A DNA stretch of 22,466 nucleotides. It comes from an uncultured virus (IMG/VR IMGVR_UViG_3300034110_001238) (Duplodnaviria > Heunggongvirae > Uroviricota > Caudoviricetes). Each line of letters starts with the position of its first letter. The first letter of the stretch is position 1. Shown in pieces: positions 3,565-19,806 of this stretch. The stretch is from the IMG/VR virus record IMGVR_UViG_3300034110_001238. The stretch is one strand, 5' to 3'. The translations under genes were made by a program, and so were the position numbers. The notes under the pieces were generated by a model, which worked only from the letters and a program-made list of their open reading frames with translations, was not told where the DNA came from and did no database searches.

Positions 3565-5369
3565 ATTTTTAATCCTGTTTTTTTAGGTTTTTCTTTATAG
3601 TCGCCTAGATTATATTTTTCTTTCATTGTTTTTGAGTATTCGTCATTAAGTTTAAATTGATTGAAATCATTTTTTAAGACTTCTAAATGTAATGCACTAT
3701 AATTCGTCAAAAATGTAAAATCGTCATCATTTTTTAAATGGCTCGCCAATATTGATCCATCTTTTTTTATCGTAAATCCAATCATTGAATTATTACTTGT
3801 TTCTTTTTCATTGAAATCATACATAAAATATTGACGTGCTCCATTTTCAGTATAGTCTTCAAAGTAATTAGATGTACGTGAAATGCACCAAGACGGCGAT
3901 CCTAATTTTTTAGACAATCCAAAGTTCTCAACATGGAAAATAACAACGCCATCTTTATCATAACAAGGCGTAATCCCGTTGCCTTCAAGTTTTGAACTTA
4001 ACGCAGTATGGGTAAAACCAGAGAAGTGATCTTTTACTTTGGTTACATATTCTAAAAACTCTTCTGGTGTTTTTAAAGCTGCAATCTTTTTACCAACATA
4101 ATTTTGCAAGGATTGTTTATTAACGCCAGCATCATAGATAATTTTTAACATGTCACGAGCTGCTGGGGTTAACAGATGTTGATATTTATTACTCAGTATG
4201 CTGTTTATATATTGATTAGTCTTGTGCTCCAAGACGACTTCGTTGATACTGTCATCCACTGCTTCCATTGATTTATCGGTCATTTGTAAAACGTTAATAC
4301 CTGCACGAGCCACTACATCACTGTATTGCTGATAGGTATCTAATACTGGAATAATATCCATTGCTGATTCACTGTCTTCAATAAAGCGTTTAAAAAAGTT
4401 GGCGACTTTTGGTTTCTTTCTAGACAAGTGAGCAATCGCTGATTCATGTAACTCTTTACGAGAGTCATAGAAATCATATTCAGTAAGTGTGTGTTTATAT
4501 TGTCCATTATCAGAATAAGCATAAGATCCATCTATGAATAAAATATTGTCTGGTTTTGATTGACCTTTTAATTGAACTCTTGTTTCAATTAAATGATCAA
4601 AGTCTTTTGATTTTAAGAAACTTGAAATATCATTATCTGTCTCAACTTGTGAATCACAAAATTTATTTGCCATTGTTTTCATGACTTCAGGTGTTTGTTT
4701 TTTTATGGTATCTTTCATTGTTTCAATATCAATGGTCATTTTATACAAAATATTTTCGTAAAGACTGATATTCTTATTGATATTCATGAAGAAATTATTT
4801 TGAGATCCTACTTTATCATTAAACACTTCCATAAAATCCTGAATCAATGCACGAACATACGGTGCATTATTATTGGCTTCTTTAATTTCTTTAATGGTTT
4901 TAGATAAGTCTTTTACTATTAAGCTAGACTTCTTGAAAAATACAGAGCAATCTAACAGTGTTTTTTTTAATTGATCAAAATTTTCATGAGATTCTACACC
5001 ATTTACGTTTGCAAAATCAACCCACTCTTTATACATAGACATCTGACCATTCACAATACGTTTATCAATAACACCGCCGGTGTCATCCAGCGTAAAATAA
5101 GAGCGTGAGACGGCTTCTACGACATTAGCAAGGTCTAAATTTGAGGTAGACTCATTAAATTTTTCTTTGAATATTTCATAAGCTGTCACAACACTGGTGA
5201 AGTCAGATTTTATTTGGGAAACATAGCCTCTATTTATAATAAAGTTAGGTGTATCTCTTGTGAAGCCCAAGAGCATTTCCTGAGTAATATCACGTTTCGC
5301 AACTTCTTTAAAATGATTTTCGATGATGTTTAAACTGTCTTTAACTGCTTCATTTTCTTTAAAATGCAT
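3561..5369 (-). CDS. PcfJ-like domain protein (602 aa), paralog of 19901..21787
   Basis: C-terminal LQNYVGKKIAALKTPEEF...LGSPSWCISR...YFEDY...QYFMYDF...SMIGFTIKKDG...H closely matches the 19901 protein; the GSxxWCI pattern recalls phage PcfJ-like domains (family call tentative). Confidence 0.7.
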   Translation of the reverse strand: MHFKENEAVKDSLNIIENHFKEVAKRDITQEMLLGFTRDTPNFIINRGYVSQIKSDFTSVVTAYEIFKEKFNESTSNLDLANVVEAVSRSYFTLDDTGGVIDKRIVNGQMSMYKEWVDFANVNGVESHENFDQLKKTLLDCSVFFKKSSLIVKDLSKTIKEIKEANNNAPYVRALIQDFMEVFNDKVGSQNNFFMNINKNISLYENILYKMTIDIETMKDTIKKQTPEVMKTMANKFCDSQVETDNDISSFLKSKDFDHLIETRVQLKGQSKPDNILFIDGSYAYSDNGQYKHTLTEYDFYDSRKELHESAIAHLSRKKPKVANFFKRFIEDSESAMDIIPVLDTYQQYSDVVARAGINVLQMTDKSMEAVDDSINEVVLEHKTNQYINSILSNKYQHLLTPAARDMLKIIYDAGVNKQSLQNYVGKKIAALKTPEEFLEYVTKVKDHFSGFTHTALSSKLEGNGITPCYDKDGVVIFHVENFGLSKKLGSPSWCISRTSNYFEDYTENGARQYFMYDFNEKETSNNSMIGFTIKKDGSILASHLKNDDDFTFLTNYSALHLEVLKNDFNQFKLNDEYSKTMKEKYNLGDYKEKPKKTGLKI

Positions 5370-11882: not shown

Positions 11883-12524
11883 ATGATTACAATTGATTTT
11901 AAAAATACAGGAAACGTGCTTTCAAGGCAGAAAGCTGTTTCTTTGTTTGAATATGCCAACAACGCGACGAAAATGATTAAAACTGGTCACATTGTCATTG
12001 GTAGACAATCATCAGGTATTTTTCATATTCAATGTGATGGTAAAACTGTAGGCAGAATCCAAATTACAAAAAATGGGAATAAAATAAAAAACTACATCAC
12101 TACACTTGTATTAAAAAGCGGTGTAGGTTATTTAAGAATGCCACACACCTATACAATGCGTTCTAAATCATCGAAAGATTTGTCCCCGATGTATGAAGAA
12201 TGGACCTATCACACAATAGAAAACTCTGCTGATTTGGATATCAGCTATAAAATTATTCAAGATGAAGGTTGCGTTCATTCTTATGATATTGACGTTTTAA
12301 ATTATGGCGAAGAGCTTAAAATAATAAATCTTAATGCACGACTGCAGCGTAAAGAACATGAAGCTAATCAAGCATTATACTTTAATCGTTTAGCATTAAG
12401 TTATATAGCCTTTACACAACAAGATTTCTTTATTGACTTATTTGGGACAAATGACTTTATTGAGGCTTTAAACAGTCCTCATTATCAATCTAATCTCGAT
12501 GTTATCAACATGTGTGAGATTTGA
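11883..12524 (+). CDS. Hypothetical protein (213 aa), probable distant paralog of 11209..11865
   Basis: GGAG SD; ends QSNLDVINMCEI. Confidence 0.85.
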   Translation: MITIDFKNTGNVLSRQKAVSLFEYANNATKMIKTGHIVIGRQSSGIFHIQCDGKTVGRIQITKNGNKIKNYITTLVLKSGVGYLRMPHTYTMRSKSSKDLSPMYEEWTYHTIENSADLDISYKIIQDEGCVHSYDIDVLNYGEELKIINLNARLQRKEHEANQALYFNRLALSYIAFTQQDFFIDLFGTNDFIEALNSPHYQSNLDVINMCEI

Positions 12525-13108: not shown

Positions 13109-14545
13109 TTAAGCTTTGAAGGTTAAGATAGGACTAAATTTAGCAATAACTGAAACAGTCTTTTCATCCACTTGTGATTGAATGACTGGGCCAATCTCTT
13201 TGTAAGCTCCCGGTGCTTCTTCAATCAAACGTTCTTCTTTCAATGTAATACATTCAACACGGTCCAAACCCAGTATGCTTTTGTCTTTTTTAGCTTTATA
13301 TGAAATCTCATTTCTGGAAATACTTCTCCCAGCCCCGTGGCTAGCTGAATTAATCCAGCTTTCATTACCTAATCCACTCAACATATAGCTGTCATGTCCC
13401 ATACTCCCCGGAATTAAAAGATCTTGTCCTGCATGGGCGGGTGTTGCTCCTTTTCTGTGAACATTACCGATATCTTCTTTTAAAACAATATTATGTGGAA
13501 CGTCAACCAACAAGGAACAATCTACATTGCCAAATACTTCCATTGTGCGTTGTCTTACGAGTTCTGCAATCAAAGCTCTATTTAAGGTCGCATAATGAGA
13601 CGCACTATGCATTGCAGCCATATAATCATCAACACCTTCACCATAGATAGGGAATATCTTGCTGTCTGGATGTTTATGTCCAGTAGGCCATTTTTGTTTA
13701 GCTTTATCCGCCCAACGAGTACCTACATAGAAACCTACATCGCGTGAACCTGTGTGAATCATTACCACCAGTTGACCAACTTTGATACCATACTCATACG
13801 CTTTCTGTCTATCAGTGATTTCAGTCACTACCTGCAACTCACAAAAATGATTGCCACCGCCTAATGTTCCCATTGAAGGATCTCTAATAAGATCTCTACT
13901 CATGTTTTGTAAAGCTTCTGGGGCAAAGCTTGAATTTCCTTTTTCAAAAGATGATGAATGTAACTTGTAGATTTCTTTTTCAATTTGTTGATAATCTATT
14001 TTCTGAAAAATACCTTCTTGCTTACTGTTTCTCATCGTTTCAAAAAAATCACCAACACCATTATCAAATAATGCTTTCATAGCATAAGGTGTCACTGGAA
14101 TGTTTCTTGTACCTTCCAACAAGTCGCCTTTAAGTTTTTTCACCCATTGTTCTTTATTTGCCATGAACTTGTCATAGGTTAAGTCAAGTTTGTGCAATCT
14201 CATACCACAATTGATATCTGTACCGATAGCTTGTGGAATCACCATGTCGTGACTGGTCACTACGACACTGCCTACTGGAATCGTGCTACCTGTGTGGAAG
14301 TCGGGTGTTGCACAAGAACATTTCACATGTCCACCGTCTGGATGTTGAATTTTTGCAAAATCCATAAGCTGATGAATAGCCTTCTCTTCAATAGGGAATG
14401 TGTCTGGCATTAATATTTTTGATTCTAAGCCTACGTCATTGGTAGATTTAACACTTAACACGTTAGGACTTTCACGATCAATCAATAAACCACTTTTTTG
14501 TAGTTTTTGTTGAATACGTTTAAACGGAATTTGTTTGTTTTTCAT
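13109..14545 (-). CDS. rtcB: RtcB family RNA 3'-phosphate/2',3'-cyclic phosphate-5'-OH ligase (478 aa; start revised from TTG 14614)
   Basis: All hallmark motifs present: PDFHTG..IPVG, GTDINCGMR, GTLGGGNHFCE, HTGSR, PHN, HRKGAT, PGSMG, SASHGAGR (guanylylated His), EEAPGAYK; GAGG SD 8 nt before ATG 14545. Confidence 0.96.
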   Translation of the reverse strand: MKNKQIPFKRIQQKLQKSGLLIDRESPNVLSVKSTNDVGLESKILMPDTFPIEEKAIHQLMDFAKIQHPDGGHVKCSCATPDFHTGSTIPVGSVVVTSHDMVIPQAIGTDINCGMRLHKLDLTYDKFMANKEQWVKKLKGDLLEGTRNIPVTPYAMKALFDNGVGDFFETMRNSKQEGIFQKIDYQQIEKEIYKLHSSSFEKGNSSFAPEALQNMSRDLIRDPSMGTLGGGNHFCELQVVTEITDRQKAYEYGIKVGQLVVMIHTGSRDVGFYVGTRWADKAKQKWPTGHKHPDSKIFPIYGEGVDDYMAAMHSASHYATLNRALIAELVRQRTMEVFGNVDCSLLVDVPHNIVLKEDIGNVHRKGATPAHAGQDLLIPGSMGHDSYMLSGLGNESWINSASHGAGRSISRNEISYKAKKDKSILGLDRVECITLKEERLIEEAPGAYKEIGPVIQSQVDEKTVSVIAKFSPILTFKA

Positions 14546-14546
14546 G

Positions 14547-14629
14547 ATACTGGCCTCTGATTTTTTAGATAAAGTATTACCTCGGAAATATTCCGATAAA
14601 ATTATCACACTCAATCAGCAGCCAGCTAT
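14547..14629 (-). promoter_or_regulatory. Structured 5' UTR of rtcB sequestering the SD (candidate cis-regulatory RNA)
   Basis: Nested helices: CUGGCU-G-CUGAUU with AAUCAG-A-GGCCAG, GAUAA/UUAUC, and apical UCGGAA-UAU-UUCCGA. Confidence 0.6.
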
Positions 14630-14645
14630 TAGAATGGATATGTAT

Positions 14646-14674
14646 ATACTAGCATTATTTAAAAGACAAGTCAA
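14646..14674 (-). promoter_or_regulatory. Sigma70-like promoter of rtcB
   Basis: TTGACT-17bp-TAGTAT with TGn extension; predicted TSS near 14639. Confidence 0.7.
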
Positions 14675-17227: not shown

Positions 17228-17255
17228 AAAGGCACTCACAAGAGTGCCTTTTTTT
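17228..17255 (+). terminator. Attenuator terminator (3:4 helix) upstream of aspS
   Basis: AAAGGCACTC-ACAA-GAGTGCCTTT plus a T7 run; its 5' arm GGCACTCA can alternatively pair with leader TGAGTGTC (17184-17191). Confidence 0.85.
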
Positions 17256-17307: not shown

Positions 17308-18576
17308 ATGAAAATTAAAACAAGTCAAATCACAAGCTACATTGGTCAAACCATTACCATGCATTTAACACTGGAAGCCTTACGCGACCAGAAACATCTG
17401 CAATTCTTAATTGGTGGAGACAAATCAGGTAAACTTCAACTGGTTGTACAGAAATCAAAAGTTGAACAACATGCCGAAATATCAGAGCTTTTAGAAGGTT
17501 CTACATTTTCTGTGACTGGATTGATTGTGGAAGCGAAACAAAGCAAAACGTTTGGTGTAGAGATGCAAGTTGACTCAATTATTATCCATTCTAAATCATT
17601 ACCACGTCCAATTATGGAGGACTCATCTATTGACCTTCGTTTTGACTACCGTGTTGTGGACTTGAAACATCCAAAAAGACAACTGATGTTACAATTACGT
17701 TCTGCGTTCGAAGCTGGCTGCAGAGAATACTTATTACAAAAAGAGTTTACTGAAATTCACACACCTAAGCTAATGGCTCAGGCCAGTGAGAGTGGTTCAC
17801 AAGTTTTCGAGGTAAAATATTTCGATAAAAAAGCTTATTTAAGCCAAAGTCCACAGTTCTACAAGCAATGTTCAATTGCCAGTGGGCTGGAAGCAATTTT
17901 TGAAATAGGGCCAGTTTTCCGTGCAGAAGAATCACACTCAACCAGACACATGACAGAGTTTACTGGATTTGACGTTGAGTTTGCATGGTGCTTTGAAACA
18001 GCAGACGTTATGAAACTTGAAGAAGATATCTTAACTTATGCATTTTCAAAGTTGGAACCATTCAAAGAAAAGGTAATGGAACTCTATGGTATAGAATTGA
18101 TGACAAAGCCTACTGTTCAATATATAACCTTAGCCGAAGCTAAAAAAATCTTAGCTGATGAGTTAAAACTATCGGTCGGTCAAGACTTACCAGACGAAGG
18201 TGAAAGGTTGTTGTATGAAAAATTAGGCAAAGACTTGATATTTATTTCAGACTATCCGATAGGCAAGCGTCCATTTTATCATATGAGAGAAACGGAAAAA
18301 GGAACAACCAAGAGCTTTGACTTGATATTCAAAGGGATTGAAATCACAACTGGTGCTATTCGTGAGCATAGAATTGACATCTTAGAACAACAAGCCATTG
18401 AAAAAGGTATTCAACCAGAGTCAATACACCACTATTTGGACAGTTTCAAATATGGTTGCCCACCACACGGTGGTTTTGGACTGGGTATCGAACGAGTAAT
18501 TGCAAAACTGTTGGGATTGGGGTCAGTGAAAGAGGTAAGCTTCGTGCCACGAGATCCAGACAGATTGACACCATAA
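17308..18576 (+). CDS. aspS: Aspartyl-tRNA synthetase, short archaeal/eukaryote-like type (possibly non-discriminating tRNA(Asp/Asn) ligase)
   Basis: 422 aa; OB anticodon domain (LRDQK..QF...D.SG..Q.V), motif 1 EIHTPKL, AYLSQSPQFYKQ (AspRS-type, not AsnRS xSxQL), motif 2 FRAEESHSTRH.TEF, motif 3 PPHGGFGLGIER; too short for the bacterial GAD insertion; GGAG SD. Confidence 0.93.
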   Translation: MKIKTSQITSYIGQTITMHLTLEALRDQKHLQFLIGGDKSGKLQLVVQKSKVEQHAEISELLEGSTFSVTGLIVEAKQSKTFGVEMQVDSIIIHSKSLPRPIMEDSSIDLRFDYRVVDLKHPKRQLMLQLRSAFEAGCREYLLQKEFTEIHTPKLMAQASESGSQVFEVKYFDKKAYLSQSPQFYKQCSIASGLEAIFEIGPVFRAEESHSTRHMTEFTGFDVEFAWCFETADVMKLEEDILTYAFSKLEPFKEKVMELYGIELMTKPTVQYITLAEAKKILADELKLSVGQDLPDEGERLLYEKLGKDLIFISDYPIGKRPFYHMRETEKGTTKSFDLIFKGIEITTGAIREHRIDILEQQAIEKGIQPESIHHYLDSFKYGCPPHGGFGLGIERVIAKLLGLGSVKEVSFVPRDPDRLTP

Positions 18577-19164: not shown

Positions 19165-19806
19165 ATGAAAAAACTATTTATTTTTGATATTGATGATGTT
19201 ATTTACGATTTAAAATCAATGATGTATGAAGCATTAAAAGAACACACTGGTAAAGATATTCATCATGATACATGGAAAACATTGAACATGAATGAAGTTT
19301 TTGATTTGGACTACAAAGAAGTGGTTGATGTATTTTTAAAACACGATGTGTTGAGAAGTGGGCAGTTAAATTTTGGAATCTATCCATTACTTGATTACTT
19401 AAAAAAGAACAATATTGAAACAAAAGCAGTTACCGCACGCGGTTGGCATCCAGAAGCTGACCAGATTACACAAGCTTTTTTTGAAGAACATGATATTCAA
19501 ATGGGCGGTATCAAAGTAATTAAGTATACTGAGAAAAAGTCAGAATACATCGCTCAACTCACTGATTACAATATTGTAGGTTATGTGGATGATAGCGATA
19601 GACACATTATGGAAACAAAACTGGCATGTCAAGGTAATGTTAAAAACTATTACATTCAAGACCAACCTTGGAACAGACATGTGGAACTTGATACTGGTAT
19701 GCAGAGAATTAACGATATATCAGAAATAAGAAACCATCTTGAAATCTATCTTGGATCTGAGAAAAAGATTGAACCTATTCGAAGTATAAAATTTAAACAT
19801 CAATAA
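19165..19806 (+). CDS. HAD-superfamily 5'(3')-deoxyribonucleotidase-like phosphatase (NT5C type)
   Basis: Motif I FIFDIDDV, motif II VTAR, motif III K (EKKS), motif IV YVDDS, and the C-terminal QPWN typical of the family; AGGAG SD. Confidence 0.85.
   Translation: MKKLFIFDIDDVIYDLKSMMYEALKEHTGKDIHHDTWKTLNMNEVFDLDYKEVVDVFLKHDVLRSGQLNFGIYPLLDYLKKNNIETKAVTARGWHPEADQITQAFFEEHDIQMGGIKVIKYTEKKSEYIAQLTDYNIVGYVDDSDRHIMETKLACQGNVKNYYIQDQPWNRHVELDTGMQRINDISEIRNHLEIYLGSEKKIEPIRSIKFKHQ

Follow-up and report, generated by a model that had tools for sequence, protein, structure and literature searches.

Why does the rtcB gene of this DNA start so far downstream of its promoter, and what might the folded stretch between them do? 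We use "the window" for the whole stretch of 22,466 nucleotides that was analyzed, the record of an uncultured virus (IMG/VR IMGVR_UViG_3300034110_001238). A first-pass annotation had pointed to the leader of rtcB as an RNA that folds end to end on the minus strand and buries the Shine-Dalgarno motif of the gene, and had proposed it as a new cis-regulatory element. The features discussed in the following are, in the direction of transcription:

14646..14674, minus strand: sigma-70-like promoter found by consensus scan, with -35 TTGACT (14674-14669), a 17-nt spacer, and a TG-extended -10 TAGTAT (14651-14646)
14627..14639, minus strand: pyrimidine-rich 5' tail of the leader, unpaired in the minimum free energy (MFE) fold
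14629-14613 and 14562-14547, minus strand: basal helix as first listed, 5' strand AUA-G-CUGGCU-G-CUGAUU and 3' strand AAUCAG-A-GGCCAG-UAU
14613..14626, minus strand: 5' arm of helix P1, GCUGGCU-G-CUGAUU, from sequence reading and the ViennaRNA fold
14616..14622, minus strand: heptamer GCUGCUG, core of the P1 5' arm, positions 2-7 invariant in 37 of 37 leader clusters
14566..14609, minus strand: variable interior with P2 and P3 (ViennaRNA fold), kept in low-GC relatives without covariation
14606-02 and 14572-68, minus strand: P2, GAUAA/UUAUC
14596-14582, minus strand: apical hairpin P3, UCGGAA-UAU-UUCCGA (arms 14596-91 and 14587-82)
14549..14562, minus strand: 3' arm of P1, AAUCAG-A-GGCCAGU, which holds the Shine-Dalgarno GAGG and ends 3 nt short of the ATG
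14557-14554, minus strand: Shine-Dalgarno GAGG, inside the P1 3' arm
13109..14545, minus strand: rtcB coding sequence, 478 amino acids, ATG at 14545-14543, Pfam RtcB match with E 6e-97

The Pfam match and the nearest solved relatives (RtcB of Pyrococcus, Thermus, and human) assign the gene product to the RNA 3'-phosphate/5'-OH ligases, and within these to the long archaeal/eukaryal type. A TTG codon at 14614 lies in frame with rtcB, and the first-pass annotation had named it as the start that would undo the proposal. This start can be rejected because close relatives carry 1- and 2-base indels behind the TTG that break the frame. In L001, a relative with 99% identity, the A-run that separates TTG 14614 from the ATG is longer by one A, and the variant in run X15 has two additional bases in the same interval. 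The closest protein relatives, with 476-478 amino acids, also speak against it. In the low-GC relatives, the distance from the heptamer to the ATG is 74-81 nt, with differences that are not multiples of three.

The promoter hexamers are found at the same place in relatives, and the spacer sequence between them is not kept. Transcription is predicted to start near 14639, which gives a leader of 94 nt. Three RNA-library contigs lie on the 5' part of rtcB (X18, 14307-14519; X19, 14418-14557; X20, 14279-14420); none of them covers the leader or marks a start, the farthest reaching 14557. The X15 sequence spans the whole region and may be DNA. Because the window genes carry Shine-Dalgarno motifs, sigma-70-type promoters, and hairpin-plus-U terminators, expression is of the prokaryotic kind, and a buried Shine-Dalgarno is meaningful.

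Base-by-base reading of the minus strand recovered every segment of the reported hairpin at its coordinates, with GAGG inside the basal helix. The ViennaRNA fold of 14645-14540 gives the same nested structure with an MFE of -28.0 kcal/mol, which none of 200 dinucleotide shuffles reached (shuffle mean -17.9 ± 3.1, z -3.21); folding from the predicted transcription start gives a z of -3.59. According to the model, forcing positions -18 to +5 of the start region open would cost 10.9 kcal/mol. Between the window and its 99% relative there are three leader differences, all at unpaired positions, and the promoter spacer differs at many positions. The hairpin is confirmed as lying in the right place and folding better than chance.

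We gathered RtcB relatives from metagenomes (78 loci), viral contigs (5), and species genomes (35). Loci that reach 41% identity and have sufficient upstream DNA were treated as one clade (84 loci), and the heptamer was sought up to 170 nt upstream of the estimated start. Exact GCTGCTG was found upstream of rtcB in 75 of these 84 loci, and two more have the shifted form CTGCTGC. Among the seven clade loci that lack the heptamer, five have a protein match that begins at residue 40 or later, which leaves the start uncertain, and two are viral contigs with rtcB inside an operon. The heptamer is absent from all 22 distant rtcB loci (below 41% identity). Named carriers are Pseudomonas, Metapseudomonas, Massilia, Burkholderia paludis, Andreprevotia, Tahibacter, Lysobacteraceae, Enhygromyxa, another Myxococcota metagenome-assembled genome (MAG), and a cyanobacterial MAG (Leptolyngbya); the leader is also present on uncultured low-GC contigs and on viral-like contigs.

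The 79 leaders comprise 69 unique sequences and fall into 37 clusters at 80% identity. A -35/-10 pair with a spacing of 16-18 nt precedes the heptamer in 37/37 clusters, the heptamer follows the predicted start by 9-22 nt, and the leaders measured from these starts are 78-143 nt long. In the proteobacterial loci (L022, L044, L047, L096, L111, and others), a GC-rich, CCGCGC-like discriminator is located between the -10 element and the predicted start. GC-rich discriminators are typical of growth-rate- or ppGpp-sensitive promoters.

For each of five whole genomes, a covariance model of the Massilia-type leader ranks the rtcB leader first; the four remaining matches have E values of 0.28-0.64. 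The model recovers Pseudomonas-type leaders weakly (E 0.004-0.05) and misses the leader of the window; a match of this model at 11891-11980 lacks the heptamer and was discarded as spurious. In a scan of viral contigs for the 14-mer of the window, at least 116 stretches match, and the downstream partner of the 14-mer is present in 0 of 80 loci among the matches listed.

Searching by covariance model against Rfam 15 (4227 models) gave no match in the window at the gathering threshold. The leader region at E ≤ 10 gave a single lncRNA match, which we regard as noise, and twelve diverse rtcB loci at E ≤ 1 gave no match on the leader. We found no description of the rtcB leader motif in the accessible part of the literature, and the term rtcB is absent from the accessible full text of three motif-discovery papers (PMC5737381, PMC2864571, and PMC1950547), the supplements of such papers being a place where a copy under another name could stand. 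The leader of the window is one copy of a widespread and apparently undescribed bacterial RNA element, so that the proposal of a new cis-acting leader RNA is supported and extends to a multi-phylum family.

Which part of the fold is conserved? We folded one leader of each cluster from the predicted start to position +9 of the AUG. The mean fold z is -3.41, with 30 of the 37 clusters below -2. The heptamer is predicted to pair with bases between -28 and +6 of the AUG at a probability above 0.5 in every cluster, and the basal helix over the Shine-Dalgarno and start region thus recurs in all 37. Measured to the center of the P1 3' arm, the distance upstream of the AUG is 2-18 nt in 36 clusters; in the remaining cluster, the center falls immediately behind the AUG. 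What P1 encloses depends on leader length: a single long hairpin where the leader is short, a junction of three hairpins where it is long.

The flanks of the heptamer covary with their partners across lineages. Over eight P1 flank columns, 164 of 296 cells form standard pairs, compared with 100-119 when the partner is slid by 1-3 columns and 118.5 ± 7.7 when partners are permuted within GC class (z 5.9; 0 of 10000 permutations reach the native 164). The P1 register for this count was taken from each MFE and is partly fitted, which the slid and permuted controls answer in part. Columns -4 to -1 and +7 to +9 show 6-14 both-side changes each; at column +8, for example, U-A occurs 8 times, A-U 12, C-G 4, and G-C 1. 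A MAFFT alignment across lineages was dropped after its 3' arm proved to be misaligned. For 16 betaproteobacterial-type leaders aligned with MAFFT, 88.6% of the cells are paired versus 77.0 ± 1.1 in shuffles (0/500), 10 of 20 pairs have both-side changes versus 5.6 ± 1.4 (0/500 shuffles), and sliding the partner leaves 40-51% paired.

These data also bear on an operator at the level of DNA, in which the two arms would be an inverted repeat bound by a repressor. GCTGCTG and its complement indeed form an inverted repeat just downstream of the promoter. However, the arms are 40-120 bp apart with variable spacing, the interior hairpins covary inside the Massilia-type group, the leaders fold better than their shuffles, and G-U cells exceed A-C cells (58 versus 38, a modest excess only). 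We consider this reading highly improbable.

The covariation does not extend to all parts of the structure. Within the close relatives of the window (6 sequences), compensatory change was found in none of 14 predicted pairs. The upper half of its P1 (CUGAUU/AAUCAG) is not kept in L005, L006, and L017; like GAUAA/UUAUC and the UCGGAA hairpin, it is lineage-specific, and other hairpins stand there elsewhere. Further conserved elements are not general either: the A fraction is 0.24 as compared with 0.20 in whole leaders, and CGUC occurs in 12 of 37 clusters. Of the multi-helix fold that the first-pass annotation had described as a whole, GCUGCUG and its start-site partner are conserved and the inner helices are not; the covariation that it had asked about is found in the P1 flanks across lineages and is absent from the close clade of the window. 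The conserved unit is the invariant GCUGCUG together with its start-site partner rather than the entire multi-helix fold.

The leader thus has the features of a ribosome-site-sequestering leader, namely a helix over the Shine-Dalgarno and start region that is conserved with compensatory changes, except inside the close clade of the window. A paired start site would also fit an RNA thermometer, a leader-peptide attenuator, or a chance hairpin, a set of readings to which we give almost no credence. Release by temperature had been suggested as one trigger. The modeled pairing probability of the start-region helix is 0.88 at 15 °C and still 0.86 at 55 °C, and because P1 is predicted to be stable over this range in all 37 clusters (above 0.5 in each), the leader is not a thermometer. 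ATG-initiated upstream open reading frames (uORFs) of at least six codons are found in 8 of 37 clusters and encode unrelated peptides, a run of five or more T residues at the start is found in none of the 37, and the leader of the window (14546-14640) contains no terminator-like site. Since there is no shared uORF, U-run, or leader terminator, attenuation of this kind does not apply, and a chance hairpin is ruled out by the conservation at 75 of 84 clade loci. In the L021 leader only, a Shine-Dalgarno-like GGGAGG follows the heptamer and precedes an 18-codon uORF whose stop overlaps the rtcB AUG.

A small-molecule riboswitch, with an aptamer closed by P1, would share the 5' location, the closing helix that overlaps the ribosome site, and the conservation across phyla. 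Such an aptamer is very improbable because invariance is limited to seven bases and the interior is hypervariable: its architecture extends from a single hairpin to a junction of three, the sequences are unrelated, no conserved pocket is apparent, and no Rfam riboswitch matches. A hammerhead-like CUGANGA core that was seen by eye has no GAAA after stem II and no Rfam ribozyme match, and was rejected. Control by RtcR and sigma-54 is not indicated at this locus, where the promoter is sigma-70-like and Pfam finds no RtcR gene beside rtcB.

The heptamer could have other partners. In the window, 14636-14628 may pair with 14615-14608 to form a tentative alternative 5' hairpin that displays the heptamer in its loop. 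In general terms, this hairpin joins the pyrimidine-rich tail (5' tails are 72% pyrimidine across the 37 clusters) to a purine-rich stretch after the heptamer. Swapping partners gives a z of -5.0 that is confounded by GC; against composition-preserving shuffles, the mean z is -0.93, with p ≤ 0.05 in 6 of 37 clusters. The hairpin is weak in the window (z -0.85), and Tahibacter-type leaders have no room for it, so that it may exist on aggregate support only. In three carriers, the 16S rRNA also contains a single copy of the heptamer complement, ∼1020 nt from the 3' terminus of the rRNA. We treat pairing with 16S rRNA as a coincidence because the match does not continue into the leader flanks (1 of 37 clusters has the base that it would require at +7).

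With moderate confidence, we favor the reading that the leader of the window is a conserved, cis-acting translational clamp that travels with one RtcB paralog family. Transcription would start ∼94 nt before rtcB and bring GCUGCUG to within 9-22 nt of the 5' end, where it would pair with the Shine-Dalgarno-bearing bases right before the AUG, and the resulting P1 would close over the variable hairpin domain. With a P1 that is stable, spans a long range, and lies over the landing site of the ribosome, the rtcB mRNA would be translationally off by default. The heptamer may in addition be the recognition site of a trans-acting factor that opens or locks the clamp, since it is invariant while its partner varies, and since the element accompanies the gene through several phyla and onto mobile or viral-like contigs. 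In this role, a small RNA specific to one host is unlikely because the heptamer is invariant and the element stays with the gene in distant hosts; the recognizing factor should be universal or RtcB itself. As a matter of speculation, our preferred triggers are the titration of RtcB by broken RNA, which would amount to autogenous feedback, or a break in the leader.

All structural data would fit equally well with a constitutive damper or stabilizer, in which the clamp would keep basal translation low or shield the 5' end from decay and would never be opened in a regulated manner. The lack of generality of the A-rich and CGUC stretches, which leaves no second conserved, sensor-like element, points in the same direction. 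An invariant 7-mer with a varying partner nevertheless exceeds what a helix needs, and at a modeled opening cost near 11 kcal/mol, the gene would be all but silent. We regard a mere damper as unlikely, if worth keeping in mind.

The first-pass annotation had raised, as one of several possible triggers, cleavage of the leader by a host defense RNase. In such an RNA-damage fuse, loss of the 5' strand after the endoribonuclease cut would free the start, and RtcB could even reseal the break. It is in line with this idea that the gene encodes an RNA 3'-phosphate/5'-OH ligase, that the leader accompanies it into very different hosts and onto viral-like contigs, and that the alternative 5' hairpin would show the heptamer in a loop in some lineages. 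Against it, neither a nuclease, a cleavage site, nor a cleaved RNA was seen, and the alternative hairpin has the low scores and the limits of space given above. We consider such a fuse doubtful. A broader, repairable version is a long shot. Here, the heptamer strand would be cut or captured by a ribotoxin, by RtcB loaded with broken RNA, or by free RNA that carries the heptamer complement; the clamp would open, RtcB would be made, and the clamp would be restored once RtcB had resealed the break or cleared the broken RNA. If true, this would be a self-contained and horizontally portable sensor of RNA breakage inside the mRNA of the repair enzyme itself.

The proposed clamp belongs to a particular copy of the gene. 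Many bacteria carry extra RtcB paralogs, and the five genomes that we checked (G001-G005; loci L104, L099, L109, L110, and L090) each hold three RtcB copies. The canonical RtcB adjoins RtcR in 5 of 5 genomes, whereas the leader-bearing copy does not; the third copy has a split Pfam match (positions 1-75 and 141-425) in 4 of 5. Because these genomes also hold a canonical rtcB beside rtcR, the leader-bearing paralog is separately controlled. There is no conserved operon partner downstream of rtcB among the loci compared: the 167-amino acid open reading frame near rtcB in the window resembles only that of L005 (30%), and the other loci differ. In Pseudomonas danubii (L090), a TwoAYGGAY RNA (RF01731, 62.4 bits with a gathering threshold of 43) is located at 4169-4289 on the minus strand, ∼1.2 kb downstream of rtcB.

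The window has a GC content of ∼30% and Pfam matches for 2 of 23 open reading frames, and its DNA matches none of the deposited phages. Two further contigs carry the same DNA (99% at the protein level; L001 and L002), one of 181 kb that is recorded as viral and one of 1.86 Mb from a metagenome. Relatives sit on contigs of 0.45-1.5 Mb, and sequencing runs of 17 studies, with lake, plant, dairy, food, and rhizosphere material, contain parts of it. Such DNA may belong to a phage or prophage or to a bacterium with a small genome. Within 5 kb of rtcB (13109-14545, minus strand), the plus strand encodes a polynucleotide-kinase-like protein (PHROG 415/420, 19165-19806) and a class II Asx/Lys-type tRNA synthetase (Pfam, 17308-18576), which, with rtcB, may form an RNA-repair/translation cluster. 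A bidirectional, terminator-like hairpin at 17228-17251 separates convergent genes and has U-runs on each strand.

The leader marks one RtcB paralog family across several phyla and mobile DNA, and its seven bases and their partner offer a testable handle on when the repair ligase is made and which signal is answered. Should the core bind RtcB or damaged RNA, an RNA-repair enzyme would for the first time be seen to have a damage sensor at the level of RNA; even as a mere damper, the element is a new candidate Rfam family.

To our knowledge, the RtcR activator is the only well-understood control of bacterial RtcB. In Escherichia coli and Salmonella, RtcR acts with sigma-54 as a protein activator of rtcBA operon transcription. 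Both that system and the leader control an RtcB RNA ligase, presumably upon RNA damage, but a protein acts on transcription there, whereas a sigma-70-type promoter would be combined with an RNA clamp on translation here. A structured RNA that is genetically linked to rtcB is known from rsr-yrlBA-rtcBA operons, which encode the Y RNA YrlA together with Rsr (PMC4201824). YrlA is a trans-acting, tRNA-like RNA, in contrast to the rtcB leader, which has no Rfam match.

The translational operators of thrS, the ribosomal-protein leaders, and T4 gene 32 are autogenous and occlude the ribosome site. Like these, the rtcB leader lies over the start region and has a conserved recognition element, and its logic could be the titration by substrate. 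It differs from them in that a long-range helix with an invariant 7-mer takes the place of a mimic of a known substrate. Finally, long-range 5' clamps make the primary transcript translationally inert in the MS2 maturation gene and in the +1 mRNA of tisB. In both, as proposed for the rtcB leader, the 5' end is paired with a distant start region, and the RNA must be refolded or processed before it can be translated. Whereas those clamps belong to single lineages, the proposed rtcB clamp is a multi-phylum family with a fixed sequence core.
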